From assembly GCA_964508365.1 (NCBI GenBank), contig CAZDTP010000018.1:113-64112 (forward strand): a stretch of 64,000 nt of DNA, read 5' to 3'. Below, in pieces: positions 13,192 to 55,542 of this stretch. Source of the DNA: an uncultured archaeon. Lineage in GTDB: Archaea > Asgardarchaeota > Lokiarchaeia > Sigyniarchaeales > SOKP01. Both the position numbers and the translations under genes were made by a program. Within the stretch, counting starts at the first letter, position 1. Every line of letters starts with the position of its first letter. Under the pieces are notes generated by a model. The model saw only the letters and a program-made list of their open reading frames with translations, was not told where the DNA came from and searched no databases.

Positions 13192-13902
13192 CTAAAATCT
13201 TATTTTATATTTTTGTAGCTTCCAAGCTCCGTATCCTTGAATCAAAAAGCAGAGTAAAAAGGAATATTGAGATATTTTTTGCATGGAAGCTTGTAATATT
13301 AGCCCATCTAAAGTGATAGATTTAGGTATACTTATTAAGACAATAGTGTAAGCAATTCCGACGATTAGCAGGGCAATATAAACGAAGGCATACCGGTTAG
13401 GATAATCCTTGTTGTAAAAAACTGCGATAGTAAAAAATATAATTCCTAAAACGCCGGTAACATTGAACAAATTGGCGAAAATTAGATGAGTTTTTCCAAA
13501 GATGTCCCAGGGAGTGAGAATCGTACCGATCATAAAAATTATTGAACTAAGACAAACTAACGAGCCAATTCTTACTACTAAGTATAACTTTCGATCGCTT
13601 TTGAAAAACGAAGTAATTGCAAAAGCGAAAGGTATAAACGAGGCACTTAGAATTAACGCAGTAATCGTAAATATTACGAACGAAATATTGTTAGGAGCAC
13701 CTGAAAGTGCGATAACTCGACCTAAATCGCTAAAAAAATTACCCCAAAAATAATATCCTGGACTTAAGGGATTGAAAAGGGTTCCCCCGGCGTAAAACAG
13801 CATAGCTACTGCGGTTAGAATAATATATTGAGCGGGACCGAATACTATGAACAGTGAAGCAAATATTTTCCAATTTTTATGTATCTTCATTAACACCACC
13901 AA
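13192..13902 (-). CDS. Polytopic membrane protein, hypothetical
   Basis: Six to seven hydrophobic helices, no catalytic motif recognised. Confidence 0.55.
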   Translation of the reverse strand: MVVLMKIHKNWKIFASLFIVFGPAQYIILTAVAMLFYAGGTLFNPLSPGYYFWGNFFSDLGRVIALSGAPNNISFVIFTITALILSASFIPFAFAITSFFKSDRKLYLVVRIGSLVCLSSIIFMIGTILTPWDIFGKTHLIFANLFNVTGVLGIIFFTIAVFYNKDYPNRYAFVYIALLIVGIAYTIVLISIPKSITLDGLILQASMQKISQYSFLLCFLIQGYGAWKLQKYKIRF

Positions 13903-14043: not shown

Positions 14044-14856
14044 TTATCTAGCATATTTAGGTTTCGTTATGAATCCTATAAACATAAGTAGGTTTACTCC
14101 TATATCGATAATTTCAGCGATTGTACTAAAATAAAGATTGGTAGAAATGAGAATCGTCCTGAGTAAATTTGAAGCTATAAAGCAGATAAATGCTATTCCG
14201 ATTATTAACCCGTTTGCCTGAGAGAGTCGCTTATTTTTGTACATAAATAAAAACATAAACGCAATGGCAATAAAGCTGATAATTGTCATGAAAGGAAAAA
14301 CTAGATTGAGGAAATCTAAGCTTGGGGCTAAAACTATTACTGATATGGTTATCAAAACAAAAATTAAAATGATCCTTAACCTAAGCTTGTTAAATTGCTT
14401 TTTCTTCATCTCTTTATTCTTGTTCATATTAATGTATACAAGAATCGCATCTAAACCAATATACAATATTGGCATCAAATTTGCGATTATTATAAAAAAT
14501 CTGATTTTTACCAACATTAGAATGAACCCCGTATCAAATAAGCCTGATATTACCGCAGAATTATAGAAAACATCGTAAACCTTCGCCCATGTAAATATTC
14601 CAAAAAACGATCCAAATAAGAAGTAGGCATCTGAAATATAAATGGCTTCTTGCTTTAACCATTTACGATAGAGAAAGAACGACATAATACCTAAGATTAC
14701 AATTCTACTCGTTATCGCAATTAAACCAATATCATTATCAAATATAGTGGCCGCCAAAATTGGCCCGTAGAAAGAAAACAACAAGACGAAGGCTACGATT
14801 AAAGCAAGATTTATAGTTAGAACGCTGCACAGGAACTTCTTCTTTTTATCTTCCAT
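14044..14856 (-). CDS. Polytopic membrane protein, hypothetical
   Basis: Seven to eight hydrophobic helices, no catalytic motif recognised. Confidence 0.55.
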   Translation of the reverse strand: MEDKKKKFLCSVLTINLALIVAFVLLFSFYGPILAATIFDNDIGLIAITSRIVILGIMSFFLYRKWLKQEAIYISDAYFLFGSFFGIFTWAKVYDVFYNSAVISGLFDTGFILMLVKIRFFIIIANLMPILYIGLDAILVYINMNKNKEMKKKQFNKLRLRIILIFVLITISVIVLAPSLDFLNLVFPFMTIISFIAIAFMFLFMYKNKRLSQANGLIIGIAFICFIASNLLRTILISTNLYFSTIAEIIDIGVNLLMFIGFITKPKYAR

Positions 14857-15458: not shown

Positions 15459-15974
15459 TTGATTACGATGAAAACTGTAAAAGTTATTGTGTCAGGAGAC
15501 GGAAGAGTAGGAAAAACCTCGTTTTTAAACCGACTCGTCCACAATAGCTTTGATGAAGATAGAGAATTAACCAAAGGTGTTGATTTTTATTCGAAAAACA
15601 TCACGGTCAATGGGATTGAATTTAATTTTATTATGTGGGACTTTGCTGGCCAAGCTCAGTTTAGAAAACTTCTAAATGATTTTGTTGAGGGTTCTATCGC
15701 AGCTGTTATTCTTTTTGACTTAACACGGATTAATACCATTGAAAATGTGTACGATTGGATAAAAACTTTTGAAGCTTTTGGAAACCTTCCTATCTTATTA
15801 ATAGGAACAAAAAGTGATCTTATTCCGTCATCTGATAACCAGGCAATAGACAATTACATCCATGATATTGTAAACGAGTACGAAAATATTATAACTTACC
15901 TTAAAATATCTTCAAAGACGGGAGAAAATATAAAAAACGCTTTTGAAATCTTAATTGGTAATCTATGCCTTTAA
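15459..15974 (+). CDS. Ras/Rab-like small GTPase
   Basis: G1 GDGRVGKTS, G3 WDFAGQ, G4 GTKSDL, G5 SSKTG. The start could be ATG 15468 (MKTVKV...). Confidence 0.8.
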   Translation: MITMKTVKVIVSGDGRVGKTSFLNRLVHNSFDEDRELTKGVDFYSKNITVNGIEFNFIMWDFAGQAQFRKLLNDFVEGSIAAVILFDLTRINTIENVYDWIKTFEAFGNLPILLIGTKSDLIPSSDNQAIDNYIHDIVNEYENIITYLKISSKTGENIKNAFEILIGNLCL

Positions 15975-15999: not shown

Positions 16000-17034
16000 C
16001 TAAATTTTCTCAACCCATCCAAATTCGTCTTCTATATCCAAACGCTGAATGCCAGTGAGCATTTCGTATCCCTTTCGAGTAATCTCTCCCGGTTCCCCTT
16101 CGCTAAAAATCCGCTTTTTTTCCTCGAGAACAATTGATTTAATTGGAGTAATAACAGCAGCAGTTCCCGCGCAAAAAGCTTCGGTACAAGATACTTCAAA
16201 AAGCTCTTTGTAAGAAATGTCTCTTTCTTCTATTACCATTCCAATTTTTTTTGAAGCTAACTCTAAAATTGATTTTCGTGTAATTCCCGGTAAAATTGTG
16301 CCAGCAGTTTTCGGAGTTACTAAGACACCGTCAATTACAGCAAAGAAGTTTGCAGTTCCAACCTCATCAATATATTCTTTATGAACAGCGTCTAAAAAAA
16401 TAACTTGCGCAAAACCTTTTTCCTTAGTTTCCTTGGCGGGTAACATGGAACCTGCGTAATTGCAACACGTTTTGCTCGAGCCCGTTCCACCTGGAGCCGC
16501 TCTTGTGTATTTCTTCGTGATTTCTAAATCAATACCTTTAAATCCTTCTGGAAAATAAGGGCCTACCGGGACGGTAAAGATTATCATTTTATACTCCTTC
16601 GCAGGTTTTACTCCAACTACAGGACCCGTTCCAATCATTATAGGGCGAATGTAAAGAGCTCCACCACTATCATAAGGTGGTATATAATCCTCATTAGCCC
16701 TTACTACTTTTTTAACGGCAGAAACAAAGCTATTTACGTCATATTTGGGCATGAGCAATCTACTAGCACTATCGTTGAATCTCTTTGCGTTCTCCTTTGG
16801 TCTAAAGAGAACGTGATCGCCCTTTTTCGTCTTTAATGCTTTCATCCCTTCGAAAATTCCTTGTCCATAGTTTAATATGCACGCTGCAGGTGAAATCTCG
16901 AAGTTACCAAACGGTACTAATGTACCTTCTTCCCATCTCTCGTCTTTGTAATTTGATACAAACATGGTCTTCGTTTCAATAAATTCGAATCCTAGAGAGT
17001 AGTAATCTATATCTTTGGCATCCATAAATATCAT
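16000..17034 (-). CDS. ilvE: Branched-chain amino acid aminotransferase (fold type IV)
   Basis: FEGMKA, YIRP, SSKTCCNYA, GITR and a BCAT-like length. Confidence 0.8.
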   Translation of the reverse strand: MIFMDAKDIDYYSLGFEFIETKTMFVSNYKDERWEEGTLVPFGNFEISPAACILNYGQGIFEGMKALKTKKGDHVLFRPKENAKRFNDSASRLLMPKYDVNSFVSAVKKVVRANEDYIPPYDSGGALYIRPIMIGTGPVVGVKPAKEYKMIIFTVPVGPYFPEGFKGIDLEITKKYTRAAPGGTGSSKTCCNYAGSMLPAKETKEKGFAQVIFLDAVHKEYIDEVGTANFFAVIDGVLVTPKTAGTILPGITRKSILELASKKIGMVIEERDISYKELFEVSCTEAFCAGTAAVITPIKSIVLEEKKRIFSEGEPGEITRKGYEMLTGIQRLDIEDEFGWVEKI

Positions 17035-17439
17035 ATTCTAGTTAATTTTATCAGAATTATTTAATGATTTGTTTCCTAAAAAATCTTATTGATAAACCGA
17101 GATCGTCCTAATTGTTGGTTTATGTGTGAAAATCTAAAAAATCAATAAATTAACCGAGATTTAAATAAGGAACGAGTTACACGATTTTCAAAGCGTATTG
17201 CTAAGAAACTTATTCTAAGAACATGGAGAATAGAAATCGTGGCATTTTTTTTCGAAAAAGAAAATGAGCGTTAGGTAAGTTACAATCATCTCTATTTCCC
17301 TAACTTTCACTACTCATTGAATAAATTAACGCAATATATTAAAGATCTGTAAGGGATTGAAAATTATTTTTGTTACTGAGAAAGATAGGTCTATTTAAAC
17401 AAACAAAACATTTTTCTGAAGGATAATGTTACTTTATCT

Positions 17440-18327
17440 ATGGCCTTACAAAAAATGACTGCTCAAAAAATAATTGAGAAGAAAAAAAACGGAGAAAAAA
17501 TAGTAACTATCACTTCTTACGACTATTCGTTTGCTAAGATCGTTGACGGATGTGGAATTGATTTAATTCTCGTAGGTGATTCTCTTTCCATGGTAATTCT
17601 TGGATATAAAAATACTTTGGCAGTTACAATGGAAGAAATGATTCACCATACAAAAGCAGTGTCTCGTGGAGTTTCAAATGCGATGATAGTTGCGGATATG
17701 CCCTTTTTATCGTATAAAATCACCATACCCGAAGCAGTTAAAAACGCGGGAAGGTTCATTCAGGAAGGTGGAGCTGAAGCCGTGAAAGTTGAGGGAGGTA
17801 CGAAAATTTGTCCCACAATAAAAGCGATGATTGATGCTGATATTCAAGTCATGGGGCACATAGGACTTACACCTCAGGCTATTTATGAGTTTGGAGGATT
17901 TTTAGTTCAAGGGAAAACGATAGAAACCGCAAAAAAGCTGATTATCGACGCAAAAAAGTTAGAAAAATCAGGGGTGTTTTCAATTGTCCTAGAAAGTATT
18001 CCTTGGCAAATAGCTAAATTAATTACTAAATCGATCGACATTCCAACCATAGGTATTGGAGCGGGTTCTTACTGTGACGGCCAAATTTTAGTTATTAACG
18101 ATATGTTAGGGCTTTTTACCGACTTCAAACCTAAATTTCTCAAATATTTTGGAGATGTGGGAAAATCCGTCCGAAACGCATTATTTAACTATAAAAACGA
18201 AGTAGAAAAAGGGATTTATCCCGATAGAGAGCACTCATACGAATTTCCACAAGAATCCTTAGAACAAATTAACGATTGGTTTGAAAATGTAGATATTGAA
18301 GAAGAGTCAAACAAAAGAACACTATAA
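17440..18327 (+). CDS. panB: 3-methyl-2-oxobutanoate hydroxymethyltransferase (ketopantoate hydroxymethyltransferase)
   Basis: LVGDSL.MV..G, ADMPF.SY, VK.EGG, GH.GLTPQ, GIGAG..CDGQILV. Confidence 0.85.
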   Translation: MALQKMTAQKIIEKKKNGEKIVTITSYDYSFAKIVDGCGIDLILVGDSLSMVILGYKNTLAVTMEEMIHHTKAVSRGVSNAMIVADMPFLSYKITIPEAVKNAGRFIQEGGAEAVKVEGGTKICPTIKAMIDADIQVMGHIGLTPQAIYEFGGFLVQGKTIETAKKLIIDAKKLEKSGVFSIVLESIPWQIAKLITKSIDIPTIGIGAGSYCDGQILVINDMLGLFTDFKPKFLKYFGDVGKSVRNALFNYKNEVEKGIYPDREHSYEFPQESLEQINDWFENVDIEEESNKRTL

Positions 18328-18600: not shown

Positions 18601-20340
18601 ATGGTTGAAGAATACGATTATCTTTTTAAATCTATTGTGGTAGGAGATGGCGGGGTCGGTAAAACCGCATTGACACTCCGATTTTCGAAAGGATTCTTTA
18701 CTGAAGATTATAAAATGACTATCGGTGTTGATTTTCATGTAAAAACGATCTCGATTGATACTTTTGAAGGACCAATCAAATGTAAGCTCCAACTCTGGGA
18801 TACTGGTGGCCAAGAACGATTTAGCTCTATAAGACCTATGTATTATAGAGGATCGCTCGGTTCAATCCTCGTCTTCGATCTTACGAATTCTGCAAGTTTT
18901 GAACATTTACCACAGTGGATTGAAGAAGTTAGGGCTAACATAAATGCTGAAATACCTGTATTACTTGTTGGCAATAAAAGCGATTTAACTAACCAGAGAG
19001 CAGTTTCAATTGAAGAAATTAATAATTTTACCAGAGATTTCAACTTATATTATATGGAGACGTCTGCTAAGACTGGTGATGGCGTAGGAGATTGCTTTTA
19101 CATTCTCGCTTGCTTGATGATAGGACAAGGAGTTCCTGAACAACTGATAGCTAGCACAACCGTTTACGCTCCAGGACAAATAATTATAGGAAGTGAACCC
19201 ATCGAAAAGCCAGTTGTTCAACCCACAATACCTCAAAACGAGTATTTAGCTCCACCAGTACCAGAACCAATAAATACCTACCCTAAAGAACCCATACCTA
19301 GTTTTGAACCCGAACCCGAACCTGAATATGATGCGCCCCCAGTACCAGAACCTGAATATGATGCACCCCCAGTACCAGAACCTGCTCCTGTGTTTCAACC
19401 TCAAGTTAATCAAGAAATTTTTACGCCCGAGCCAACAGACATAGAATTTAAAACGCCTGATCAGATTATGGCTGAGAAACCTCAGCCGTCAGAACAAGAT
19501 ACTATAACAACTGATGACGAAACGTACAAGCCTAAAACTATACCATTTACATCAAATGTTCCAATCCCAGCACCTACTCCTAAAGAATTCCAAACAGCTA
19601 AAACAGAAAAACCCACGGAGGGTACTTCTTTCCAAACTCCATTCCGTGTCACGAAAAGAGAAGAACCACCTAAACCACGACCCGCCGCTATGACATTTGA
19701 ACCAACTCCCCAGCCACAACAAGAAGTAGCCGTCGAACCGCCATTTTTTCAAGCACCAGTTTCCCAACCTGCAACTTCGGAATCGTTAGTCGACTATATG
19801 CCCCAAACAATAATACCTAAAAAAGAAATGAAAAAATTAGCTAAAGAGAAAAAGAAACTAGGTAGGGAAAAGGCTAAAATCGAAAAAGAAAAGAAAATTT
19901 CTGAAAAACGGGAGAAACAAGGGGAGTTATTTGAAGCGATGAAGACATCAAAAAAAAGTAAAAAAGAAAAAAAGCCTACTGATGAAGGTTTGACACTCGA
20001 ACAAACATCACCTCAAGTATCACCGAGTTCCGAATCAAGTTCATTGTTCCAGACTTTAACTCAAAGAACGGAAGAAATCGCAGAGGAAAGTAGCGCACCC
20101 TTCGCTCCTTTTACCGATACAAAAAGGATTGACGAAGAAGAGAAATCTAAATTACGAATAATTCCTAATATAGCAGACATAGATAGCAATTTCACATCGT
20201 TTACAGCAATTACATCCTCTCATTCAGTTCAAGAAGAAAAGCAAAAAGAGAAGAAAAAAGATCTACTTATTTGCGAACAATGTGGAACAATATTATCTTC
20301 CGATTACGCTTTTTGTAATAAATGCGGTAATAAACTCTAA
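18601..20340 (+). CDS. Rab-like small GTPase with a roughly 400-aa Pro/Glu/Lys-rich disordered extension and a C-terminal zinc ribbon
   Basis: YDYLFK, GDGGVGKT, IGVDF, WDTGGQERF, YYRGS, LVFDLT, GNKSDL, SAKTG (Rab-family-type motifs). The tail ends CEQCGTILSSDYAFCNKCGNKL and has no CaaX or CC prenylation motif. Confidence 0.85.
   Translation: MVEEYDYLFKSIVVGDGGVGKTALTLRFSKGFFTEDYKMTIGVDFHVKTISIDTFEGPIKCKLQLWDTGGQERFSSIRPMYYRGSLGSILVFDLTNSASFEHLPQWIEEVRANINAEIPVLLVGNKSDLTNQRAVSIEEINNFTRDFNLYYMETSAKTGDGVGDCFYILACLMIGQGVPEQLIASTTVYAPGQIIIGSEPIEKPVVQPTIPQNEYLAPPVPEPINTYPKEPIPSFEPEPEPEYDAPPVPEPEYDAPPVPEPAPVFQPQVNQEIFTPEPTDIEFKTPDQIMAEKPQPSEQDTITTDDETYKPKTIPFTSNVPIPAPTPKEFQTAKTEKPTEGTSFQTPFRVTKREEPPKPRPAAMTFEPTPQPQQEVAVEPPFFQAPVSQPATSESLVDYMPQTIIPKKEMKKLAKEKKKLGREKAKIEKEKKISEKREKQGELFEAMKTSKKSKKEKKPTDEGLTLEQTSPQVSPSSESSSLFQTLTQRTEEIAEESSAPFAPFTDTKRIDEEEKSKLRIIPNIADIDSNFTSFTAITSSHSVQEEKQKEKKKDLLICEQCGTILSSDYAFCNKCGNKL
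19318..19377 (+). repeat. Perfect-frame 30-bp tandem duplication (2 units) encoding EPEYDAPPVP
   Basis: gaacctgaatatgatgcRcccccagtacca occurs twice (19318-19347 and 19348-19377) with one substitution. Confidence 0.85.
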
Positions 20341-20376: not shown

Positions 20377-21183
20377 CTAAAGATTTTTACCGCAAATGGG
20401 GCATGTGCTCCACATCTTTTTGATTTTTGAATTACAATAAGAGCAAACTTTCAACTCTGGGTCTATCTGAGTTTGAAGAGTTCCAAAAATCGTTTTTGTA
20501 TCGTCAACATGGTATTTTTTTGGTTGAGGGGGTTGTACATCGCTTTGATTATTTATATGAAGTTCAGAGAGTTGGATTGATTCATCAAAAATTATTTTAT
20601 CAAGTTCATCCTCGAGATCGACCTTGGGTTTTTCGATACTTTCTGAGGTTTGAGCAGATTGATTCGATACCAAGGAAGTTTGATCTTCTGAGGAATGTGT
20701 AGTACTTTCAGTGGATTGACTCTTATCGCTTCCTAAAGGTTCCCCAGGTAAGCCTACTTTATAACGAAAGTACATACCGTTGTTATTTTCAACGATTTTT
20801 TCACCATGTGCTAATAACACTTCAATGTAATAAATAACTACTGTACCCAACGGAACTTCAACTATTTCGGCAATAAAATAATCTAACTCTCTTTCCATCC
20901 TCAAGCTATACCACGAAACCCCCTGATCAGCGCTAAAAATTAGTAGTATCCGTTCAAAAGAGTCATCAAAATCTTCTTCCGTTATTTTTACGACAATTTT
21001 AATCGTTTTTCTCAATACTTCTTTTTTTCCGACAAATAGGTCTACCTTATCAGAATCCCAAGCAGAACCGCATTTAGGACAATTAGTAAACCAATTAGGG
21101 TATTCGTAATTACAACTGGTACATGTTTTCGTATAATATCTCGTTGTTTTTATTCCAAGCTTTTTTTTTTTATCTTTTGCCAT
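20377..21183 (-). CDS. Hypothetical protein bracketed by N- and C-terminal zinc ribbons
   Basis: CTSCNYEYPNWFTNCPKCGSAW at the N-terminus and CSYCNSKIKKMWSTCPICGKNL at the C-terminus. Central beta-rich domain and acidic/Ser-rich linker. Confidence 0.6.
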   Translation of the reverse strand: MAKDKKKKLGIKTTRYYTKTCTSCNYEYPNWFTNCPKCGSAWDSDKVDLFVGKKEVLRKTIKIVVKITEEDFDDSFERILLIFSADQGVSWYSLRMERELDYFIAEIVEVPLGTVVIYYIEVLLAHGEKIVENNNGMYFRYKVGLPGEPLGSDKSQSTESTTHSSEDQTSLVSNQSAQTSESIEKPKVDLEDELDKIIFDESIQLSELHINNQSDVQPPQPKKYHVDDTKTIFGTLQTQIDPELKVCSYCNSKIKKMWSTCPICGKNL

Positions 21184-21301: not shown

Positions 21302-22477
21302 TTATAATTTTAGTTTTTTTACGATTTTTTCTAAATCGGAACTAAATTCGATTAAATGTTCTCTTTTTACATGAGGCATAATCACCACTCTCACTAAATT
21401 GAAATCCAGAAATTTTCCTAACATCCATTTGTTGTTACGTAAATTTTTTTCAAGTTCACACATACTTTCTCCACTTTCAGTAGTGATTCCTATTACATTC
21501 ATAACTGGGTCAACCGCTAATTTTACACCATCAATTTCGGTTATTCTTCGTGCGAGGAATTTTGTATTTTCCATACATTTTTTCACAATCTCCTTAAAGC
21601 CATTAATCCCTAAAAGCTTAATTATTGCCCAAAACGCTATGATCGGACCTCCTGGTCTAGTACCTACGATGTGAAAATGTTGAAAATTCCCACCTGCTAA
21701 ATAGGGAATTTCAAATCCTGTTTTTTGTAAAATCGAAGCGTCTTTAATGAAATATCCACCTGAAGGTATAATTCCTAAACCCATTTTATGAGGATCTGCG
21801 GTAATTGAATCCACACTTTTCACTGAAAAGTCCCAAGATGGAACAAGATAACCTAACTCCCTTAGAAAAGGTAACACAAATCCACCAAACGCAGCATCTA
21901 CATGAAAAAATATGTTTCGACCTTCAATATATTCCCCAATTTCTTCAATAGGATCAACTAAACCTAAGGAAGTTGTACCCGCAACTCCAACGACAGCGCA
22001 CGTGTTATCATTAACGAGAGATTTAAAATGACTCAAATCTAATTGAAAATTATCAAGAAGATCCACCTTTCTTAACTTAATATTTAGGAAATCTGCTGCT
22101 TTATCAAAGGATATATGAGCTGAGCATGGAAGTACGACCTCTGGTTTTTTAATATTAGGTCGTAAATTTCTAGCAATCCGCATCGCTATTAAATTCGCTT
22201 CTGATCCTCCTGTTGTAAATGTACCAAAAATATTGCTATTACCAAATAATTCGCCAATTTCGCGTATAACTTCATCTTCTAATTCAGCGGTGCCTAAAAA
22301 TAATCCTGGATCTCCCAAATTTTTTGATATATACTTATTATGTATTTCTTTAGCAATGTTTAAAGGCTCTGAGCACATAGAACCTAAAATTGAGCCTGAA
22401 TCGTAGGATAAATCCTTTTTTAGCTTTTTTTCAAGCAGTTCAAGTATTTTTTGTTTCTCTATGCCTTCTTTCTGCAT
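21302..22477 (-). CDS. mfnA: PLP-dependent group II decarboxylase (MfnA-type tyrosine/aspartate decarboxylase)
   Basis: GGSEANL, HVDAAFGG, and the PLP-lysine motif DPHKMG. Archaeal MfnA-like length. Confidence 0.75.
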   Translation of the reverse strand: MQKEGIEKQKILELLEKKLKKDLSYDSGSILGSMCSEPLNIAKEIHNKYISKNLGDPGLFLGTAELEDEVIREIGELFGNSNIFGTFTTGGSEANLIAMRIARNLRPNIKKPEVVLPCSAHISFDKAADFLNIKLRKVDLLDNFQLDLSHFKSLVNDNTCAVVGVAGTTSLGLVDPIEEIGEYIEGRNIFFHVDAAFGGFVLPFLRELGYLVPSWDFSVKSVDSITADPHKMGLGIIPSGGYFIKDASILQKTGFEIPYLAGGNFQHFHIVGTRPGGPIIAFWAIIKLLGINGFKEIVKKCMENTKFLARRITEIDGVKLAVDPVMNVIGITTESGESMCELEKNLRNNKWMLGKFLDFNLVRVVIMPHVKREHLIEFSSDLEKIVKKLKL

Positions 22478-40055: not shown

Positions 40056-41138
40056 TTAAAAGTCTTGAGTTTCAATAAATTTGTTAATTATTTGTAAAGC
40101 AAGCATTTTGAAGGCATCATTTATATTTTCTCCTGTTTTAGCGGAGGTTTCGATATAAGTCAATGTCAATTTTTGCGCTAATGCCTCTCCCTCGTCGCGA
40201 GACACTACTCTCTCAGACTCTAAATCTATTTTATTTCCCACTAAAATGAGTGCAATATCAGGAGACGCTTTATTAATCTCAATATACCAATTTTTATCTA
40301 TATTTTCGAAACTAGATCGATTAGTTACGTCATAAACTAAAATACCCGCTTCGGCGTTAGCTAAATACGACTGTCTAACGCGTTTAAACTGAGCTTGGCC
40401 GGCTAAATCCCATATTACGAACCTTACAATGCTTTCAAGTTCTTTAAACGTACACTCTTTCTTCATAATAGAAGTTCCAATAGTGGATTTATAATCAGTT
40501 GCAAACTCATTTTCAACATATCTATGCACCATACTCGTTTTACCTACTGCACCGTCACCTCCTAGAATTAACTTAAAGGCATATTCTCCTGATTTGATTT
40601 TAACTTTTTGAAATGTATCCAGTTTTCGCTGAACATTATTAGCACCCCTTTCTGTAATTAATTTAGGTATAACGGGACTTACAGGTCTACCGTCAAAAAT
40701 TCTCGCGATCTTTTCAGCAGCCAAATAAGCGTAAGGGAAAACAGAATCAACACCTGCTATAGCATCCATTACAGTAACTAAAACTGCTTCTGGACCAGAT
40801 TCGCAGAATATGAACCTATAATCTTCTGTATCGAAGGTTCCCGTTCCAAAAGATCCTGAACTAAATTCTTCAGTAATTCTAGTTAAAACTGGTTCTACTA
40901 ACGCACTTACTCCACCGATTATTTCTTCGTCAAGTGATTTTTCCGAAGACCCTACTAAAGAATCCATGATCAATCCATCTCTATTTACTACGAGGGCGGC
41001 AACTAAATTATCACCAATGCTCTGCTTGTACCACTGTAGTAACGCTCCTAACTTTTTTGTATCGACTGACAATCTCTTATAACATCTTTTTTTTGTATTA
41101 AATAGCACTATAATACTAATATGTAAATATTCTTGCAT
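40056..41138 (-). CDS. Roadblock/LC7 (MglB-like) domain fused to a Ras/Rab-like small GTPase domain
   Basis: N-terminal half LVAALVVNRDGLIMDSL...GGVSALVEPV...AVLVTVMD is roadblock-like. C-terminal half has GDGAVGKTS, WDLAGQ, GNKIDL, SAKTG. The true start may be TTG near 41072, which is preceded by a TATA-like ATTTAATA. Confidence 0.75.
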   Translation of the reverse strand: MQEYLHISIIVLFNTKKRCYKRLSVDTKKLGALLQWYKQSIGDNLVAALVVNRDGLIMDSLVGSSEKSLDEEIIGGVSALVEPVLTRITEEFSSGSFGTGTFDTEDYRFIFCESGPEAVLVTVMDAIAGVDSVFPYAYLAAEKIARIFDGRPVSPVIPKLITERGANNVQRKLDTFQKVKIKSGEYAFKLILGGDGAVGKTSMVHRYVENEFATDYKSTIGTSIMKKECTFKELESIVRFVIWDLAGQAQFKRVRQSYLANAEAGILVYDVTNRSSFENIDKNWYIEINKASPDIALILVGNKIDLESERVVSRDEGEALAQKLTLTYIETSAKTGENINDAFKMLALQIINKFIETQDF

Positions 41139-42538: not shown

Positions 42539-45500
42539 TTAAAAGAAATTTGATAATTTTTGTTGCTTTATTTTAGGATTATTCGTAAGACTTTCAACAT
42601 ATTCTTTTACTAGTTCCATTCGTTGTATAGTATAAGCGTCCAAATTAAAATCTCTGCTAATTTTTATAGCCTTTGGTATATATTTTTCAATTCCACCGCG
42701 GTTGACTGTCAATATAACATTGCCTCCACATTTTGGACACTTTCCCGCATTTGAGAGGGGTGGACGTCTATATTTCTCGTTACATTTCACGCACCTAAAA
42801 TGCTGTACAGAAAATTTTCTTAGGTTTCCCATTATATCGGGATTAAAGTGTGTTGTCAAAATCTTCTCAGCAACATTTTTATCGTTGACTGCTTTTATAA
42901 TTTTAGCTAGGTGCAGTTGCGCGTTTATCTTTTCTTCCATACTTGCATAGGTCTTATACGCTGTTGTTGTAGGACCGTTGTTAATATCGTTGGTTGGTAT
43001 GTTGAAACCCAGATTTTCGTACTGCGCTTGTGTCCCTAACCGGCTTTTCACTAAATACATTTTCTTTTCTATCTCAAATGGCATAAGATATTCCTGTGTA
43101 GCTGTATAGAACTCTAAAGGATATTTAAATAATGTATCGATATTATGAGCTTCACTATCGATTTCATTAGGGTCTAATATCGAGGATATCACCAAAGTAG
43201 CGTCCATTCTACCTCCTATTTTGCTTGGTAAATAATACCTCGAAAAATTTAACAAAGGATCTAAAAGAAGCATAATCCCATCTTCATCCCCATCGCAGTT
43301 TCGACGTTTGGCTGCATGCCAAAAGGGGTGGGCGTAGATCGAACGTGCCGGCGAAAAGCCAATGATTCTACCGACAATTCCCGCGCTTGTATGAGGAGCA
43401 AGTCCTACAACTAAATGCCCAATTAAGTCTTCTCTCTTAGTAACATTGTAAAATTTGTCAAGATTATAAAATAATTCTAATTCATCATCAATGAAATTAG
43501 CGATTTTAATAAAATATTTAGCGCAATCGTCTGAAAGAATGACATCTTGCACATTTAGCTCTACAATCTGATTTTCGTTATTTAATTCGTTAGATTTATA
43601 ATCAAATTCATATCCCAATTCATTTAACCTGTTTACAGGAGTTGTAATTTCTATAGGTTTGAAATGAGTTAATGGAATATCCGTTGCGTCGTATCGAATT
43701 TCTGCGGTTTTGTATACAAGTAACTCATGCTTAGCCCTAAGAATTCCCTTCATTAGCGGCTCAGGGACTTTAAATTGATTTGTTAATCCAATAATTCCTT
43801 TAAATTTGTTTGGTAAAGACATATTTAAAGAGTTGAGTACTGTTTTTGAATAATTTTGCATATTAAAAGAAGCTTCCTTAGAGAGCTTTAATAAGCCTCC
43901 GCATCGCTGGCACTTTTCTTCGTTTTTAGGGTAGTACATATTACATTTTGGACATATTTTTTGAAATTCAGTATGAGATCCACATTTAGGACATAGATTA
44001 AATGGTGTAATGGATGCACAATCTGGACATTTCTTTCTACATATATCAATTTTAATTTTTCCCAGATCTATCGCCTTCTGCACTAATCTTGTATTACCAA
44101 CTTTATCACTGAGAGGAAATAAGCTTTGAATGCCTTTCATGCTTTTTCTTTCAGATTTCTCAGGGCGTCCCATGCGAGTTCCCATAAAGTAAGGAGCTTT
44201 ATTTCTAATTTCAATGGGAGAAATGCTTGAAAAATAATTGAAAACGTTGTTTTCATTTTTCCCATCAATAAATTCCTTATGGCTTAAATTGAATATAGTT
44301 TCGTATATTTCTGTCGTTGCATCGTCTAGAATAATACAATTTTCATTAACTGTATGAGGAACAAATGCTCTTTCTAAAATATCCTTAATGGCAGTTCTAT
44401 TTTTTAAATTTATTTTCTTAGTCTTATTATCATAATCCTCGGTTAAAGCTTCTCTTAAAGTACTCAAATCACCTACAGAAATGTTCCCCCAAAAATCAGT
44501 GTACTTAGGATGCAAGGGCACAGAAAATTTATTTGCCAAATTGATCGCCTCTTTTGCTGAGGGAATGTTATTAAAAGGATCTTCGATAAATTTATTCAAT
44601 TCCTTGCTCGATCTTTGTTCAATTTTTAATGCTTCCTCTAACTCTAAAGCCCACCATTCTTCAACATAACCAGATGGAACCAGTTTATGGTTGTTTTCGG
44701 AAAATTCCCCAAATCCAAAGAGAATATCTCCTAGAAAAAGAATTTCTTTTATGTTATGAAAGATCTCTGTTGCCTTTTTTGCGCTCGAAATCCTTACCAC
44801 GTTTCCATTTTTGAGTTTTACTATAGGTGGTTCTATCGAGGACACAGGACAAATACTGGTACTTTTTCCAGGTCTTTCAATTCTCAATTGTGTTCCAATT
44901 GCTATAAAACCATCTAAAACAGACATAGTGGCTGGGTGCAATCCCCCCGCAGCTAATCCAGTATTGCGCGATCTTCCATAACGTATTCTATGGCCGCCAA
45001 TTTTGGACGGATGACTAAAAACTGGTCTACCAGCGATAATATCAGAAACATATTTAGAGTTAGGTGTAATTTTAATAGTAGATGTGCTCTCTAAATCATC
45101 TGTTTTCTTTACTTTATCTTCCTTTTGTGCGATATCTTTTAGTTTTCCTAACCAATTCCAACCTTCTAATTTCATGTTTTGAGCAATTTTAAGAAGTTTT
45201 GGAGCTTTAAGTAATATCCCATCGTTTAGTACCAAACAAGCACCTCCTCGAATTTTGTTCGTTTCGATTCTTGGTAATCCTCTAAACGCTGATACTTCTT
45301 CATCTTCAGTAGAGTCTCCGTTTATTTCAACAGGTAAATGCTCTATAGCGTATCGAATTTCATCGTTAGATGATGGATATTGTAAATGAACTCTCCGATC
45401 GTATAGTTTGACCTCTTCTACATATCGTCCAATTTCCCCTTCAGTGGCTACATATTTTGGAATATTTGATCGTTTCCTAACATAATCTGCAATCAAAACG

Positions 45501-45973
45501 CATAAAGCGGCTGTAGTGCCTCCAGCAGCCCTAATCGGCCCTGCAAAATATAAAGATAAGTATTTATTGTTGTGTTGATCTTCACGTATTAATATTTTTG
45601 AAATACCTTCAAGGGGAGCGCTAACGACACCCATAGTTTTTATTGCAAGACCCACCCGGATAGCTCTTTCAACCCTTTCCTCTAACGATTCAATTTTTCC
45701 TATTTTTTGGCTCAGAATGTCAGAAACTACTTGAAACACAATCTCATCTTCGTTTTTTCCTTGATTTTTTAAAACTCTTATAACATCAGCGACGCCCTTT
45801 GGTCCTACAAGCTTTTCTACTCTTCCTGCTAAATCTTTAGCTTGAGGAGATTCTACAAAAGTTTCAGGATCAAGTCCCTTTTTACGAGCTTTTTCTGCAA
45901 TTTCGTAGCATTTATCAACATCTCTTTGCAACAGAGAAAAGTAGTCTTCCATCTTCTTACTCATTTCTACCAT
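42539..45973 (-). CDS. dp2: DNA polymerase II (PolD) large catalytic subunit DP2
   Basis: 1144 aa. Multiple CxxC zinc modules (CPDC..CPKCG, CPKC..CQRCG, CVKC...CPKCGG) and DP2-type conserved blocks (GRPEKS, LLDPLLNFS). No intein apparent. Confidence 0.9.
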   Translation of the reverse strand: MVEMSKKMEDYFSLLQRDVDKCYEIAEKARKKGLDPETFVESPQAKDLAGRVEKLVGPKGVADVIRVLKNQGKNEDEIVFQVVSDILSQKIGKIESLEERVERAIRVGLAIKTMGVVSAPLEGISKILIREDQHNNKYLSLYFAGPIRAAGGTTAALCVLIADYVRKRSNIPKYVATEGEIGRYVEEVKLYDRRVHLQYPSSNDEIRYAIEHLPVEINGDSTEDEEVSAFRGLPRIETNKIRGGACLVLNDGILLKAPKLLKIAQNMKLEGWNWLGKLKDIAQKEDKVKKTDDLESTSTIKITPNSKYVSDIIAGRPVFSHPSKIGGHRIRYGRSRNTGLAAGGLHPATMSVLDGFIAIGTQLRIERPGKSTSICPVSSIEPPIVKLKNGNVVRISSAKKATEIFHNIKEILFLGDILFGFGEFSENNHKLVPSGYVEEWWALELEEALKIEQRSSKELNKFIEDPFNNIPSAKEAINLANKFSVPLHPKYTDFWGNISVGDLSTLREALTEDYDNKTKKINLKNRTAIKDILERAFVPHTVNENCIILDDATTEIYETIFNLSHKEFIDGKNENNVFNYFSSISPIEIRNKAPYFMGTRMGRPEKSERKSMKGIQSLFPLSDKVGNTRLVQKAIDLGKIKIDICRKKCPDCASITPFNLCPKCGSHTEFQKICPKCNMYYPKNEEKCQRCGGLLKLSKEASFNMQNYSKTVLNSLNMSLPNKFKGIIGLTNQFKVPEPLMKGILRAKHELLVYKTAEIRYDATDIPLTHFKPIEITTPVNRLNELGYEFDYKSNELNNENQIVELNVQDVILSDDCAKYFIKIANFIDDELELFYNLDKFYNVTKREDLIGHLVVGLAPHTSAGIVGRIIGFSPARSIYAHPFWHAAKRRNCDGDEDGIMLLLDPLLNFSRYYLPSKIGGRMDATLVISSILDPNEIDSEAHNIDTLFKYPLEFYTATQEYLMPFEIEKKMYLVKSRLGTQAQYENLGFNIPTNDINNGPTTTAYKTYASMEEKINAQLHLAKIIKAVNDKNVAEKILTTHFNPDIMGNLRKFSVQHFRCVKCNEKYRRPPLSNAGKCPKCGGNVILTVNRGGIEKYIPKAIKISRDFNLDAYTIQRMELVKEYVESLTNNPKIKQQKLSNFF

Positions 45974-46241
45974 AATACTGTCCGTACGTTGATAAGATAA
46001 TTAATCTTATTGTTGAAAATTAGGTTACATAATGTAAAATTTTTAGGTTCAAAATAAAATGTATTATTAATAGGTTAGTTGAATCGTACTATTTGAATTT
46101 GAAGAGATTTAAAGTTTTTGATAAAAGTATGAGAATTAGTATGCCCTCCTAATTATTATAAACATTGTTTAATCATTAATAATAAACAATTTATCTTTAT
46201 CTTTTAATAAATATAATAATTCTATCAAGGGAGATTCAGAC

Positions 46242-48020
46242 TTGGAAACTAGAACCACAGAGCATAAGAAGGTTATTCTTAATAAACTAATAGATTCAGG
46301 GATAAATATCTCTCCTACAATGCTAGAAAGCATTCTAAATATGAATAATCCATTGAAACACTTAAATCTCCTTATAAAACAAACGAGTTTCATTCCCTCA
46401 TTTAAGAGTCACTTAACAGAAACTATTGTAAAAGACATTTCAGACGAAAAACTACAAAAAATGCTTAAACGCACCATATCTAAAACAAATTCTCTGCAAT
46501 TACAAGAAGAAACTAAAATATCCTTCGAATATTCCAATCTTCCACAAAAAGCAGTTGAAAACTCTTTAATGGATAAAAATCTCCCATCAGAATTTTCACC
46601 CCTTTTTGAAAAATCTAAAAGAGAATACGAAAGTCAAGAGACTTCTATTACAGATCTCTTACCCGAACAAAGTACCACAATGAAAAACACAAAAAAAACT
46701 CCAAGATTCGAATCCACCAAATCTGTTTTTACCTTCAAACCTATTGCAAAAGAATACAAATCTAACTATAAAGTTATTCAAGATCCTTCAAATGAATTAT
46801 TTACTACTGGAGATTACAATGATTTTTACGAATTAACGCTTGACAAATATAATAAACTTAGGAATCTTATCAGAAAAAGACCGGAAGTAAGTTCGGCTAT
46901 TAAAATCAATAACATATTTAGGATATCTAATGGGATTGAAATATCAACATTAGGTTTAGTAGATGGTATTCATCAAACAAAAAAAGGGAATTTTCTTTTT
47001 ACATTGGAGGATTTAACTGGTAAAATTAGCGTATTGGTTCAAAATAATTCAGAAAATTTAGAGTTCGTCAAAATTATGGAAAGAACTCTCGACGATCAGA
47101 TGTTGTTCGTTAAGGGTTTGTATAATCCTGGTGAACACGGGAGAAAAGGTATCATTTTTGCCTCTTACATCTCAAAAATAGATATTCCAACAAATTTTCA
47201 ACCAAATTTATCCCCAGATCCTCTCTCTATCGCTTTAATTTCAGATACTCACATTGGAAGCAAAGAGTTTGAAGAAAGCTTATTCACCAAATTTATTAAT
47301 TTTTTAAACGGTAAAAGTAAGAATAAACTTCTAAGAGAAAAGGCTGGAAGAATAAAGTATTTAGTCATTAATGGCGATCTAATTGATGGAGTAGGTATAT
47401 ATCCCAATCAACAAGAAGATCTCGTTATCACAGATATTTATAAACAATTCAAAAAAGCTTCAGAAATTCTTATGGAAATTCCGGAATATATTAAAATATT
47501 TTTTGTATCTGGAAATCACGAACCAGTACGAAACGCAATACCTCGACCTGCAGTACCCCGGAAATATTGCGAAGATTTAGTCAATATGGGAGTTAAGTGT
47601 TTGGGTAACCCTTCTTTGCTTAAAACTCATAATGTTAACACACTTATTTATCATGGTGAGGGTATGCACGATATTAATAGATTAATTCACGATTTAGATA
47701 TAAATAAACCGGTCGACACCATGAAGGAATTTCTAATCTGTAGACATCTTGCTCCGGTATATGGTGAAAAAACGCAAATTGCCCCTGTAAGCACTGATCA
47801 TCTAGTAATAGAAAAGATTCCTGATATCTTTCATACAGGACACATACATATAAACGGGATAGGAAAATACAGGAATGTAACTCTCGTAAATTCGGGATGT
47901 TTTCAAGCTCAAACTGACTTTATGAAAAGCTTTGGGATAATACCTACGCCAGGTATAGTACCAGTAATTGAGTTGGATTCTTTAGATTTTTTATCACTCG
48001 ATTTTAATAAAATTAATTAA
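46242..48020 (+). CDS. dp1: DNA polymerase II (PolD) small subunit DP1 (OB fold plus calcineurin-like phosphoesterase)
   Basis: ISDTHIGS, INGDLIDG, GNHE, HTGHIH metallophosphatase motifs. TTG start as in the ORF track. Divergent from DP2. Confidence 0.85.
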   Translation: METRTTEHKKVILNKLIDSGINISPTMLESILNMNNPLKHLNLLIKQTSFIPSFKSHLTETIVKDISDEKLQKMLKRTISKTNSLQLQEETKISFEYSNLPQKAVENSLMDKNLPSEFSPLFEKSKREYESQETSITDLLPEQSTTMKNTKKTPRFESTKSVFTFKPIAKEYKSNYKVIQDPSNELFTTGDYNDFYELTLDKYNKLRNLIRKRPEVSSAIKINNIFRISNGIEISTLGLVDGIHQTKKGNFLFTLEDLTGKISVLVQNNSENLEFVKIMERTLDDQMLFVKGLYNPGEHGRKGIIFASYISKIDIPTNFQPNLSPDPLSIALISDTHIGSKEFEESLFTKFINFLNGKSKNKLLREKAGRIKYLVINGDLIDGVGIYPNQQEDLVITDIYKQFKKASEILMEIPEYIKIFFVSGNHEPVRNAIPRPAVPRKYCEDLVNMGVKCLGNPSLLKTHNVNTLIYHGEGMHDINRLIHDLDINKPVDTMKEFLICRHLAPVYGEKTQIAPVSTDHLVIEKIPDIFHTGHIHINGIGKYRNVTLVNSGCFQAQTDFMKSFGIIPTPGIVPVIELDSLDFLSLDFNKIN

Positions 48021-48054
48021 ATTCTTCTGCTTTTAATTGTATTAGGTGCTTTAA

Positions 48055-48738
48055 TTGAATTTTACTATTCCACGTGGCAATAACTCGGAGATGGTTTTAC
48101 ACATTTGGAAAATAATAGAGCTTCCAAGTATACAACAAGATGATTTATTGCGCAAAATTTCTTTTGAACTGTTTCTTTTCTCGCCTAAAGAGGCAAAGGA
48201 ATTCATAGAAATGGCTATTCATAAAGGTTATCTAATATTAGAAGGCGATGGGCGAATAGAATTATCAGAATCCTTAGCTCTCGACTTAAACAAATGGCAT
48301 GAAGAGAGAAAAACCCACATTTCAGAAAAGATAAAAGATGTCAACGATCTCAAAGAATTCACTAATGAATCTAAAAATAATAGTATAAATAAATTCAAAC
48401 TTTTATTAATAGCTTTACTTGATAAAGGAACGATAAATAGAGCGGTAGCAGAGTCTGATAGCGCGTACAAATTTGGATTAATCGATTCTGCTCAAAAAAT
48501 TATTAAAGCTGAAGTTCAAGGTTCTCAGAAGATTCCTTATTACATTGATATAAACATAACTGAAAAAGTGATAAAACATAATTGCCATGATTTTCTGACT
48601 AAAAGAGCAGTAAATAAAAAATTCTGTAAACACTTAGCGAAATTATTTCTCCTCTTAAAAATTAAAAACGCGGATTTGGCATCGTACTTTCTTGAGTGTA
48701 TTACCAAAGATATTAATAATTGGAGTTTTCTTTCTTAA
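48055..48738 (+). CDS. Hypothetical protein with a C-terminal SWIM-like zinc finger
   Basis: PYYIDINI...HNCHDF...FCKHLAKLFLL resembles the SWIM C-x-C...C-x-H core with H-x-C in the first half. The start may be ATG 48091 (MVLHIW...). Confidence 0.5.
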   Translation: MNFTIPRGNNSEMVLHIWKIIELPSIQQDDLLRKISFELFLFSPKEAKEFIEMAIHKGYLILEGDGRIELSESLALDLNKWHEERKTHISEKIKDVNDLKEFTNESKNNSINKFKLLLIALLDKGTINRAVAESDSAYKFGLIDSAQKIIKAEVQGSQKIPYYIDINITEKVIKHNCHDFLTKRAVNKKFCKHLAKLFLLLKIKNADLASYFLECITKDINNWSFLS

Positions 48739-50057
48739 ATTAGCTTTTTAAACACCACATTCTTTATCTTAACTTTATCGGTTTGAAGTATTATCGGTTT
48801 ATAATCTAATAAGCGATATTCTTTAATTATTTTAATTTGCGATAAAACTCGTTCTATTAGGTTAAAATCGATGTCAAGTTTTACAATTTTCGTTCGACCA
48901 TAATGACCCATCGATTTTGTTATAGCTGTTATTAATCCTGATAACGCTAATTCATTAATATAGTCACTAATCCTTCTATGCGTCAATTGTTTCACATTTG
49001 GAATGAATGATGCTAATTCTGAATGAACCTCGTAAATATCGCCCGAAGTAATTATGTGTTCTTTAGTGTTTTTTGACAATAAAAAGATGGCCGTTAATGT
49101 TAATTTTGATTGAAGAGGCATCGAAAAGATATATTCAACAATATGATCTTTATCTATATCTTTTTGAGCTTTTTCTACATGAGTTTCCATTATTTTTTTA
49201 GTTTGATCTCGTTCAGCGATTTCTCCAGCTTTTCTTAACAATTGAAGAGCTTTTCTCGCATCACCATGTTCTTTTGCTGCTAGACCTGCACATAGCTTTA
49301 TAACTCCATCGTCAATAACGCCTTCCTGAAAAGCTACTTCTGTTCTTAATTTAAGAATATCGTAGAGTTGGTTAGCATCATATGGTTTAAAGACAATTGG
49401 CTCTTCTTCCTCTAGATTGGATGTAACTCTCGCATCGAGGAATTGCATGAATTTTAGTTTATTAGATATCCCGATAACACTCGTTCTACAGTGATCTAAG
49501 TTCTCATTTAACCTCGTTAAGTTATACAAGATTTCATTTCCTCCTTTTTTCTCAATTAGAATATCTATTTCATCTAATACAAGAAAACAGATACTATCTT
49601 TGATATATTCATCCAATAAACCTAACAATTTCTTGAGAATTACGTCTTTAGGTAAACCCGTTGATGGGATTTTTTCTTTGCCAACTATCGTATTGTAGAT
49701 ATGAGCTAAGATTCTATAAGGTGTGGATACTACTGTACAATTAATATATACCCACCAAGGAGGTTTGGTGGAGCAATGTTGCGCAAGTTTTTGTGAGATG
49801 TACCTTACAGTAGCCGTTTTACCCGTACCAGTCATCCCATAACACACGAAATTAGGAGGAACATCACCTTTTAACGCACAAGCAGTTATACCAGCTATCT
49901 TCTCGATCTCCGAATTTCTGTGAGGTAATTCATCAGGAATAAAAGATGGTTCGAGAGCTTCTCGTTTTTTAAAAAGTTTCGGTCCTTTTAAGTAATTCTG
50001 ATAAAATTTATCGATATTGAATGAATACATTCCTCTTTCATTATGGTTAGTCAACAC
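48735..50057 (-). CDS. cdc6: Orc1/Cdc6 replication initiator (AAA+ plus winged helix)
   Basis: LPHRNSEI, Walker A GMTGTGKT, Walker B LVLDEID, sensor GISN, C-terminal wH. Confidence 0.9.
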   Translation of the reverse strand: MLTNHNERGMYSFNIDKFYQNYLKGPKLFKKREALEPSFIPDELPHRNSEIEKIAGITACALKGDVPPNFVCYGMTGTGKTATVRYISQKLAQHCSTKPPWWVYINCTVVSTPYRILAHIYNTIVGKEKIPSTGLPKDVILKKLLGLLDEYIKDSICFLVLDEIDILIEKKGGNEILYNLTRLNENLDHCRTSVIGISNKLKFMQFLDARVTSNLEEEEPIVFKPYDANQLYDILKLRTEVAFQEGVIDDGVIKLCAGLAAKEHGDARKALQLLRKAGEIAERDQTKKIMETHVEKAQKDIDKDHIVEYIFSMPLQSKLTLTAIFLLSKNTKEHIITSGDIYEVHSELASFIPNVKQLTHRRISDYINELALSGLITAITKSMGHYGRTKIVKLDIDFNLIERVLSQIKIIKEYRLLDYKPIILQTDKVKIKNVVFKKLI

Positions 50058-54940: not shown

Positions 54941-55203
54941 CTCCTTAAAGCATAATTATATTTTTTTTTATTAATAATATAAGTTCTCCTATTTATAATT
55001 TCATTTAAGAAAAAATAGCATTTCCTAGATAAAAAAACATAGGAGAAATATTAAAACTAAAATCTGTTTTTCCTCCCTTTTGCAAAAATGATTTATAATG
55101 ACTATTAACTTAATTCTTTTTGTTTATGAAATGCTTTTATCGTAATTAGATTGAAATTGATTTGTACATTATTAGAATCAGATATCATACCTAAGGGAAA
55201 AAA

Positions 55204-55518: not shown

Positions 55519-55542
55519 TATAAGTAGTGCATTGTAAATATC

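Follow-up and report, generated by a model that had tools for sequence, protein, structure and literature searches.

A 64,000-nucleotide stretch of DNA from an uncultured Lokiarchaeial archaeon (contig CAZDTP010000018.1 of assembly GCA_964508365.1; hereafter the window, with a G+C content of ~32%) carries a complete gene for a Rab-like GTPase with a long tail and a terminal zinc ribbon. The open reading frame (ORF), at 18601..20340 on the + strand, begins with an ATG, ends with a stop codon at 20338-20340 and specifies 579 amino acids. We found that the tail is retained throughout a family of homologues and that, as judged by substitution ratios, it is under purifying selection. With moderate confidence, we therefore favor the view that the product of this gene is a working GTP switch of the Ras superfamily, of the Asgard RasL/"Rab-like" kind, that selection maintains its C-terminal 400 residues as a functional appendage rather than as a linker to nothing, and that the switch would be tethered and partnered through this tail.

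To place the protein in its family, 5.8 billion protein clusters were searched, which gave 698 matches. More than 100 of these clusters match 100% of the query, with 54-94% identity and lengths of 546-604 amino acids, and more than 115 full-length homologue clusters share the whole layout of G domain, tail and ribbon. The clusters come from NCBI, JGI, ENA and Logan, and independent contigs carry a 100% identical protein. Homologues that bear a name are GTP-binding proteins from metagenome-assembled genomes of Promethearchaeota, Lokiarchaeota or Hermodarchaeota. When one genome was scanned for each GTDB species, at least 21 loci emerged, all of them in metagenome-assembled archaeal genomes, which are mostly labeled Promethearchaeota/Promethearchaeia (six are labeled "uncultured archaeon", and a few Hod-, Hermod- or Thorarchaeota). 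The tailed GTPase family is specific to Lokiarchaeia (Promethearchaeota). The original prediction, made from the sequence of the window, had allowed that orthologues might lack the tail, as would befit an assembly or fusion artefact; orthologues keep the tail, and this objection therefore fails. One homologue of 898 amino acids (P0048) has an N-terminal extension of ~310 residues that lacks a starting Met and is unrelated to panB, and this extension is probably a gene-calling read-through rather than a true variant.

Selection on the gene was estimated by the Nei-Gojobori method from comparisons of the window gene with three orthologues. In the G domain, the ratio of nonsynonymous to synonymous substitution rates (dN/dS) came to 0.04-0.08, and in the tail to 0.14-0.30; it was thus far under 1 across the entire gene. 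For the whole tail it stayed below 0.31 in each comparison that allowed computation. By this measure, purifying selection acts on the tail as well as on the switch domain.

The G domain (residues 1-180; 18601..19140, +) has a Ras-superfamily fold according to Pfam, TIGR and PDB matches. The Ras profile PF00071 matched residues 10-170 with E = 4.2e-53 and 179.7 bits (curated cutoff 21.6), and TIGR00231 matched with E = 1.5e-25 and 89.8 bits (cutoff 42.5), so that membership of the Ras superfamily is above the curated cutoff with both profiles. In a search of all PDB chains, the best 60 matches were eukaryotic Rabs plus a single archaeal protein, the Thorarchaeota Rab. E-values were ~1e-43 to 1e-42 for Rab30, Rab8A, Rab1A/B and Rab2A, and 1.8e-40 for the Thorarchaeota Rab (7EZB). 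The nucleotide-binding elements G1-G5 are all intact and invariant across the family. These are the G1/P-loop GDGGVGKT (residues 15-22; 18643..18666), switch I, which holds the conserved Thr40 along with the RabF1 motif IGVDF (residues 37-45; 18709..18735), the G3/switch II sequence DTGGQERF with Gln71 at the catalytic position (residues 67-74; 18799..18822), the G4 motif NKSD (residues 125-128; 18973..18984) and the G5 motif SAK (residues 155-157; 19063..19071), all on the + strand. Column conservation over 115 full-length sequences was 0.87-0.98 in this domain.

The motifs on which the Rab likeness had originally been based are all present, namely IGVDF at residue 41, WDTGGQERF at 66, YYRGS at 81 and LVFDLT at 90. 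When scored against the Pereira-Leal and Seabra consensus, the RabF1-F5 equivalents were IGVDF (5/5), KLQLW (4/5; directly before G3), RFSSIR (4/6), YYRGS (4/5) and LVFDLT (4/6). BLAST against approximate human reference sequences, which makes the scores a rough check, ranked Rab1A first with 150 bits and 44% identity, followed by Rab11A and Rab5A (143 each), Rap1A (109), Ran and Rab7A (103 each), HRas (99), RhoA (95) and Arf1 (44). The small GTPase that is encoded 3 kb upstream in the window scored 94 bits. As is apparent from the scores of Rab1A and Arf1, the G domain has its nearest relations in the Rab/Ras/Rho/Ran group, with Arf, Rag and MglA more distant, and the PDB ranking agrees. The BLAST ranking, the PDB ranking and the RabF-type motifs together make the G domain Rab-like by similarity. 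This part of the original prediction stands, but in the phylogenetic sense the domain is probably not a Rab: in a published tree, Asgard RasL proteins lie around the whole Rab/Ras/Rho/Ran group and none is specifically sister to the Rabs (bioRxiv 10.1101/2024.02.28.582541). At the level of sequence, "Rab-like" is accordingly a resemblance and not clade membership.

Beyond the G domain, residues 181-556 consist of 15% Pro, 13% Glu and 11% Lys, in agreement with the roughly 400-residue Pro/Glu/Lys-rich region of the original prediction. Charge is arranged in blocks, with a net charge of -21 in residues 181-400, +14 in residues 401-460 and about -10 in residues 461-556. The first block (19141..19800, +) is an acidic, proline-rich segment (22% Pro) with a dN/dS of 0.23-0.30, which is predicted to be disordered from its composition and from AlphaFold2, where it appears as coil with a predicted local distance difference test (pLDDT) score mostly below 50. 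The last block is rich in Ser, Thr and Glu, contains the motifs SLFQxL, FxPF and S-LRIIPN, and closes with a short basic cluster at residues 546-556 (KQKEKKK directly before the ribbon). In a charge-hydropathy comparison the tail as a whole plots with disordered proteins, and 63% of its residues are disorder-promoting. The AlphaFold2 model of the full protein was poor, with a mean pLDDT of 52 and a G domain that was itself badly modeled, and was therefore used for coarse secondary structure only; it presents the tail as coil with pLDDT below 50, except at residues 407-452, which form a helix (pLDDT ~80), and at the hairpins of the terminus. Judging from composition, charge-hydropathy and low pLDDT, the tail would be disordered as had been proposed, but not uniformly so. 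It is not uniformly of low complexity either, since it combines conserved short motifs with a predicted long helix.

Conservation of the tail in 20-residue windows ranged from 0.29 to 0.81 over the 115 full-length sequences and reached 0.90 in the ribbon, with invariant islands in between. A phmmer search with the tail only, against 1.84 billion representatives, gave 75 proteins. All strong full-length matches combined a GTPase with the tail, while the weak matches were bacterial multi-zinc-ribbon proteins that aligned at the ribbon alone. The idea that the tail is a module common to other families was rejected on this basis.

Eight separate short motifs of the tail hold invariant residues, and their occurrence was counted in the best 120 of the 698 homologue matches. 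The motif APPVPEP occurs three times in the window protein. Copy 1 lies at residues 217-223 (19249..19269, +), where A217 to E222 are at least 90% conserved, and copies 2 and 3 lie at residues 245-251 and 255-261 (19333..19383, +), where A255 to P259 are invariant. The latter two copies are within the tandem EPEYDAPPVP duplication that had been noted in the sequence, which is indeed perfect at the protein level (residues 240 and 250); in the DNA it corresponds to a 30-bp tandem at 19314-19384 with 2.4 copies and 95% matches. The consensus of the repeated motif is (E)Y(D/E)APPVPEP. Its copy number was 2-4 in 41 of the 43 orthologues tallied, and at least two PP[VIM]P[ED] motifs were present in all 120 homologues.

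The other motifs are spread along the tail on the + strand. EFKTPDQI (residues 282-289; 19444..19467), in the region of which AlphaFold2 places a short helix at residues 286-290, was found in 112/120 homologues with F283, P286 and I289 invariant, and YKPKTIPF (residues 309-316; 19525..19548) in 100/120 with Y309, P311, P315 and F316 invariant. TPF is a further conserved motif of residues 181-400. SLVDYMP (residues 395-401; 19783..19803) stands directly before the basic helix, occurs in 110/120 homologues and has L396, D398 and P401 invariant. Downstream of the helix, SLFQTL (residues 481-486; 20041..20058) was present in 108/120 homologues with L482, F483, Q484 and L486 invariant, and LRIIPN (residues 518-523; 20152..20169) in 117/120 with L518, I521 and P522 invariant. 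For four of these motifs the counts refer to the cores FKTP, Y.PK..PF, DYMP and SLFQ, and the forms conserved in the family are EFKTPDxI, YKPKxxPF and SLxDYMP.

Three known types of motif or reader were considered for these sequences and rejected. A WH2-like actin motif in LFEAMKTSKKSKK had no Pfam match, and the key Leu of LKKT in the WH2 consensus is missing. The MIM2 core is phi-P-x-phi-P with a charged x and an optional xxP-phi-P extension (PMC8970359); APPVP has a proline at x and no such extension, and APPVPEP would fit only if x were allowed to be any residue. Profilin is unlikely as a reader of the proline motifs, because Loki profilins were reported not to bind polyproline (PMC8410842).

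The KEKK-rich block that had been pointed out is real: residues 401-460 are 37% Lys with a net charge of +14. It contains a lysine-rich basic predicted helix with an LFExMK patch (residues 407-458; 19819..19974, +), of which residues 407-452 form the sole long element that AlphaFold2 predicts with some confidence. Every one of 115 homologues (100%) has a basic residue at positions K407, K408, K411, K415, K419 and K429, the LFExMK patch is more than 90% conserved, and the net charge of the block is +7 to +16 in nearly all homologues. No hydrophobic segment was detected in the tail, where the highest 19-residue Kyte-Doolittle mean was 0.79, and a transmembrane or classical amphipathic anchor was found neither by this scale nor by hydrophobic moment.

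The protein ends in a C4 zinc ribbon, ICEQCGTILSSDYAFCNKCGNKL, at residues 557-579 (20269..20337, +), as had been predicted from CEQCG...CNKCG. The cysteines at positions 558, 561, 572 and 575 give the spacing C-x2-C-x10-C-x2-C; all four are invariant across the family, and the pattern was present in 117/120 homologues. The ribbon is near-invariant also at its non-cysteine positions, with nonsynonymous differences (pN) of 0-0.07. It shares the CxxCG-x8-FCxxCG pattern and spacing of the Pfam families PF13240 (Zn_Ribbon_1) and PF12773 (DZR). The window protein itself scored 21.3 bits with PF13240, which is under the curated cutoff of 25, while 38/38 aligned family members matched it at E <= 0.01 (best E 1.7e-5) and several orthologues carry a precomputed PF13240 match. 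The ribbon would probably bind zinc. To our knowledge, no function has been established for the PF13240 and PF12773 families. A ubiquitin-binding finger of the NZF/RanBP2 type, which has the same spacing, was rejected because the Trp and Asn of its consensus are absent and there was no Pfam zf-RanBP match.

The last residues, CNKCGNKL, are within this ribbon, and a prenylatable ending (CC, CXC, CCXX or CAAX) is absent, as the original prediction had it. Among the homologues, CC, CXC or CAAX-like endings were seen in 1/120. The distance from the last Cys to the C-terminus is 4-5 residues and varies between homologues, and the ending is therefore not CAAX, CC or CXC. What did not survive is the suggestion that the tail replaces a prenylation tail. 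Published archaeal Rab-like proteins have short C-termini and never possessed a prenylation tail (PMC4915359, PMC10933270), so that the tail is an addition rather than a replacement, specific to this lineage, where relatives have none.

A second gene accompanies the GTPase gene. The GTPase gene is flanked by panB and by a convergent gene for a protein of 268 amino acids (20377..21183, -), which alignments, an AlphaFold2 model and adjacency make a candidate partner. This neighbor belongs to a family of 352 homologues that is conserved in Asgard archaea and annotated only as hypothetical. It consists of an N-terminal zinc ribbon (C-x2-C-x2-EYPNWFTNCPKC), a beta-sandwich, a variable linker that is disordered and, at the C-terminus, a zinc ribbon. 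AlphaFold2 placed the sandwich at about residues 58-143 with block-mean pLDDT values of 63-78, and Foldseek returned weak, generic matches to sandwiches of the CBM21, CBM48 and FN3 types (best E 3.5e-3). The neighbor lies directly downstream on the opposite strand in 26/26 related contigs (six from other genomes and 21 species-level genomes, with one overlap), and the measured gaps are 6 to 112 bp. This adjacency persists where the other flanking genes differ, and it is the sole adjacency of the GTPase gene that is never broken. We consider the neighbor the leading candidate for a partner of the tailed GTPase.

Taken together, a tail with selected motifs, helix and ribbon, the lack of a lipidation motif or hydrophobic anchor, and the fixed gene pairing suggest that the tail is a localization and recruitment device. 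An alternative mode of anchoring or partner recruitment for an archaeal Rab-like switch, as originally suggested, is plausible and is the reading we prefer. Under such a mechanism, the zinc ribbon, aided by the basic helix, would fix the C-terminus to a cellular target, possibly another protein or else an anionic surface. Being long and flexible, the tail would let the G domain search a large volume, its short motifs could recruit further partners in a multivalent manner, and the nucleotide state of the G domain would select effectors through the Rab-type switch and interswitch surfaces.

A more specific version, which we put forward tentatively, is that the GTPase and its neighbor constitute a two-gene Lokiarchaeal module for lipid-free localization. 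Ribbon and helix would dock at a membrane-proximal or cytoskeletal site, perhaps via the neighbor, and the tail would serve as a multivalent hub of motifs (APPVPEP, xPF and LRIIPN) that may be likened to the disordered arms of eukaryotic endocytic adaptors. If true, this would be an archaeal form of prenylation-independent GTPase targeting that predates or parallels the hypervariable-domain system of Rabs.

Several points weigh against a tethering role of the tail. Proteins that bind nucleic acids just as typically combine a lysine-rich segment with a zinc ribbon, and tethering, membrane association and partner binding are read from sequence and structure prediction, in which the picture of disorder is only indicative given the mean pLDDT of the model. 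The helix has a mean hydrophobicity of about -0.6 and a hydrophobic moment of at most 0.52, and such polarity does not fit an amphipathic helix of the classical, membrane-inserting type. Two divergent homologues, P0130 and P0143, swap the lysine block for a much longer E/K/R repeat (EEKERAKREA...), which in P0130 is nearly neutral (net +4), and in P0160 the basic block adjoins the zinc ribbon; the variants P0130 and P0160 fit a spacer as well as an anchor. The E/K/R repeat of P0130 and P0143 resembles single-alpha-helix or coiled-coil spacers. As to the neighbor, it is convergent and therefore not co-transcribed with the GTPase gene, and local synteny is rather conserved in the lineage. Finally, other Asgard GTPases, which are different proteins, showed no membrane targeting when present in eukaryotic cells (PMC10933270).

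The lysine content of the basic block, its invariant lysines and its charge, along with the second basic cluster directly before the ribbon, could also mean that helix and ribbon bind RNA, DNA or the ribosome, and that the GTPase has its role in chromatin, in translation or in the biogenesis of ribosomes. Among the transcription and ribosomal proteins of archaea, zinc ribbons are frequent, and some family members have weak Pfam matches to the K/E-rich nuclear families LUC7, CAF1A_acidic and SR-25. These matches, however, are compositional only and concern 1-4 of 38 members. The G domain is Rab-like and not of the ribosome-associated TRAFAC classes, the remainder of the tail is acidic on both sides of the block, the conserved proline motifs suggest protein ligands, and translation is not indicated by any neighboring gene. 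We regard a role in nucleic-acid or ribosome binding as rather unlikely.

A similarly low probability is assigned to the possibility that the tail is mainly a spacer, or a self-association or autoregulatory module, without a specific anchoring site. The ribbon would in that case homo-oligomerize, and the blocks of opposite charge would make intra- or intermolecular contacts and possibly condensates. The alternation of acidic, basic and acidic blocks, the single-alpha-helix-like repeat in place of the lysine block in P0130 and P0143, and the variable number of APPVPEP repeats would all be in line with this. Yet the eight short motifs with their invariant residues and a ribbon that is near-invariant beyond its cysteines indicate specific ligands, and a pure spacer is not expected to hold the dN/dS values measured for the tail with invariant motif cores.

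It is very improbable that the terminal cysteines are prenylated or acylated as in eukaryotic Rabs, with the tail as a very long hypervariable region. There are four Cys in the last 22 residues and one report of archaeal protein isoprenylation is cited in PMC4915359, but their spacing fits zinc-ribbon models in 38/38 members, the cysteine spacing and the variable distance to the C-terminus rule out a CAAX or other prenylation ending, and when sequence databases were searched with BLAST in a published study, neither Rab escort protein 1 nor the Rab geranylgeranyltransferase subunits had a homologue among the results (PMC10933270). That the long ORF is a two-gene fusion, a misassembly or a non-coding low-complexity read-through, a suspicion raised by the low-complexity sequence and the perfect 30-bp tandem, is for all practical purposes ruled out by the recurrence of the continuous ORF in more than 100 independent clusters and at least 21 species-level genomes, the low dN/dS of the tail and the invariant terminal domain.

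The wider surroundings of the gene pair were inspected as well. The pair sits amid genes for a class-IV (branched-chain type) aminotransferase and panB (ketopantoate hydroxymethyltransferase) on the upstream side (16000-18327) and for an MfnA/PanD-like pyridoxal phosphate-dependent decarboxylase on the downstream side (21302-22477), where MazG and NrdD also follow. Going by their Pfam names, the genes around the pair look like a pantothenate/coenzyme A precursor set. The small Ras-like GTPase mentioned above is a tail-less protein of 171 amino acids (15459-15974, +) that is 36% identical to the tailed GTPase, and a ~169-residue orthologue of it lies nearby in three of the six other contigs inspected. 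Two ORFs of 236 and 270 amino acids without a Pfam match (13192-13902 and 14044-14856, both on the - strand) keep their position beside this small GTPase in contigs of the same organism. Five related genomes have a Rag/Gtr1-like GTPase of ~315 amino acids upstream of the tailed GTPase, one or two genes away (L004, 3798-4742; L005, 3769-4710; L006, 3709-4665; L007, 3880-4824; L009, 2183-3139), which is absent from the corresponding position in the window. A third Ras-like GTPase of the window (40056-41138, -; 360 amino acids) has its G domain at residues 189-350, preceded by an extension of ~185 residues that looks like a roadblock/LC7 or longin-type domain, an RB-GTPase architecture that has been described for MK-D1. 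Further along, 42539-50057 holds a cluster of genes for the large subunit of DNA polymerase D (DP2), a DP1-like subunit and Cdc6/Orc1. Gene orientation, GC skew and AT skew flip near a 600-bp AT-rich divergent intergenic region at ~54941-55542. A replication origin at ~55 kb is possible, although the skew may merely follow the gene strand, and no clear origin-type repeats were seen.

Asgard archaea encode dozens of Ras-like and Rab-like GTPases, and the tailed GTPase bears on how such proteins find their place in the cell. The tailed GTPase is of the same kind as the Asgard RasL or "Rab-like" GTPases, such as the Lokiarchaeum Rab-likes and Thor-Rab, with which it shares the type of G domain, the RabF-type motifs, the lack of a prenylatable C-terminus and the Asgard lineage. 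RasL GTPases were reportedly described by Klinger et al. in 2016. In the same year, Surkont and Pereira-Leal described archaeal Rab-likes as having shorter C-termini, with no extended region, polybasic stretch or other signal for membrane association (PMC4915359), and Tran et al. took the same view of Thor-Rab (PMC10933270). Against these published analyses, which stress the absence of C-terminal extensions, polybasic regions, prenylation sites and targeting signals, the tailed family is a conserved counter-example whose extra tail of ~400 residues carries a zinc ribbon and a basic block with a charge of +14. In a survey of MK-D1, multidomain GTPases beyond roadblock or longin fusions were labeled only "?" (PMC10933270); the supplement of that paper does not mention a zinc-ribbon GTPase, and our literature searches yielded no account of any Ras-like GTPase that bears a zinc-ribbon tail.

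Compared with eukaryotic Rabs, the best sequence matches were Rab1, Rab8, Rab30, Rab2 and Rab11 (~41-44% identity), which have IGVDF, KLQxW, YYRG, LVxDxT and G1-G5 in common with the window protein. The latter differs in its P-loop GDGGVGKT and G3 DTGGQ, and in lacking a hypervariable region that ends in CC, CXC or CAAX. Going by published trees, it would also lie outside the Rab clade, and according to the literature no escort-protein, GDP dissociation inhibitor (GDI) or geranylgeranyltransferase system has been found. The layout may indicate a way in which the archaea nearest to eukaryotes could place such switches without lipid anchors. The four cysteines, the six invariant lysines and the APPVPEP repeats offer mutable handles on the attachment and recruitment of an Asgard Rab-like switch, and the answer bears on the origin of GTPase-based spatial control before eukaryotic endomembranes.

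Switches with lipid-free tails are not without parallel. RGK proteins are non-prenylated members of the Ras superfamily with basic C-terminal extensions. In RIT1 and RIT2, a switch domain is likewise followed by a lipid-free, lysine-rich C-terminal extension, but this extension is short and binds phosphoinositides directly (PMC13565119), whereas the basic block of the window protein lies 230 residues beyond the G domain, inside a 400-residue tail that is followed by a zinc ribbon. Within the archaea, CdpC of Haloferax volcanii contacts FtsZ1 through a zinc ribbon at its C-terminus, which is borne on a long linker that is disordered, and the membrane through a zinc ribbon at its N-terminus together with an amphipathic helix (bioRxiv 10.64898/2026.07.16.738847). 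Unlike the tailed GTPase, CdpC lacks a GTPase domain; compared by architecture alone, the convergent neighbor has the same ribbon/disordered linker/ribbon layout. By analogy, CdpC would be a precedent that a ribbon-on-linker design works in archaea, and we take it as a lead rather than as a sign of membership. The kind of protein, an Asgard Ras-like GTPase, is therefore known, and what is new is the architecture of its tail.

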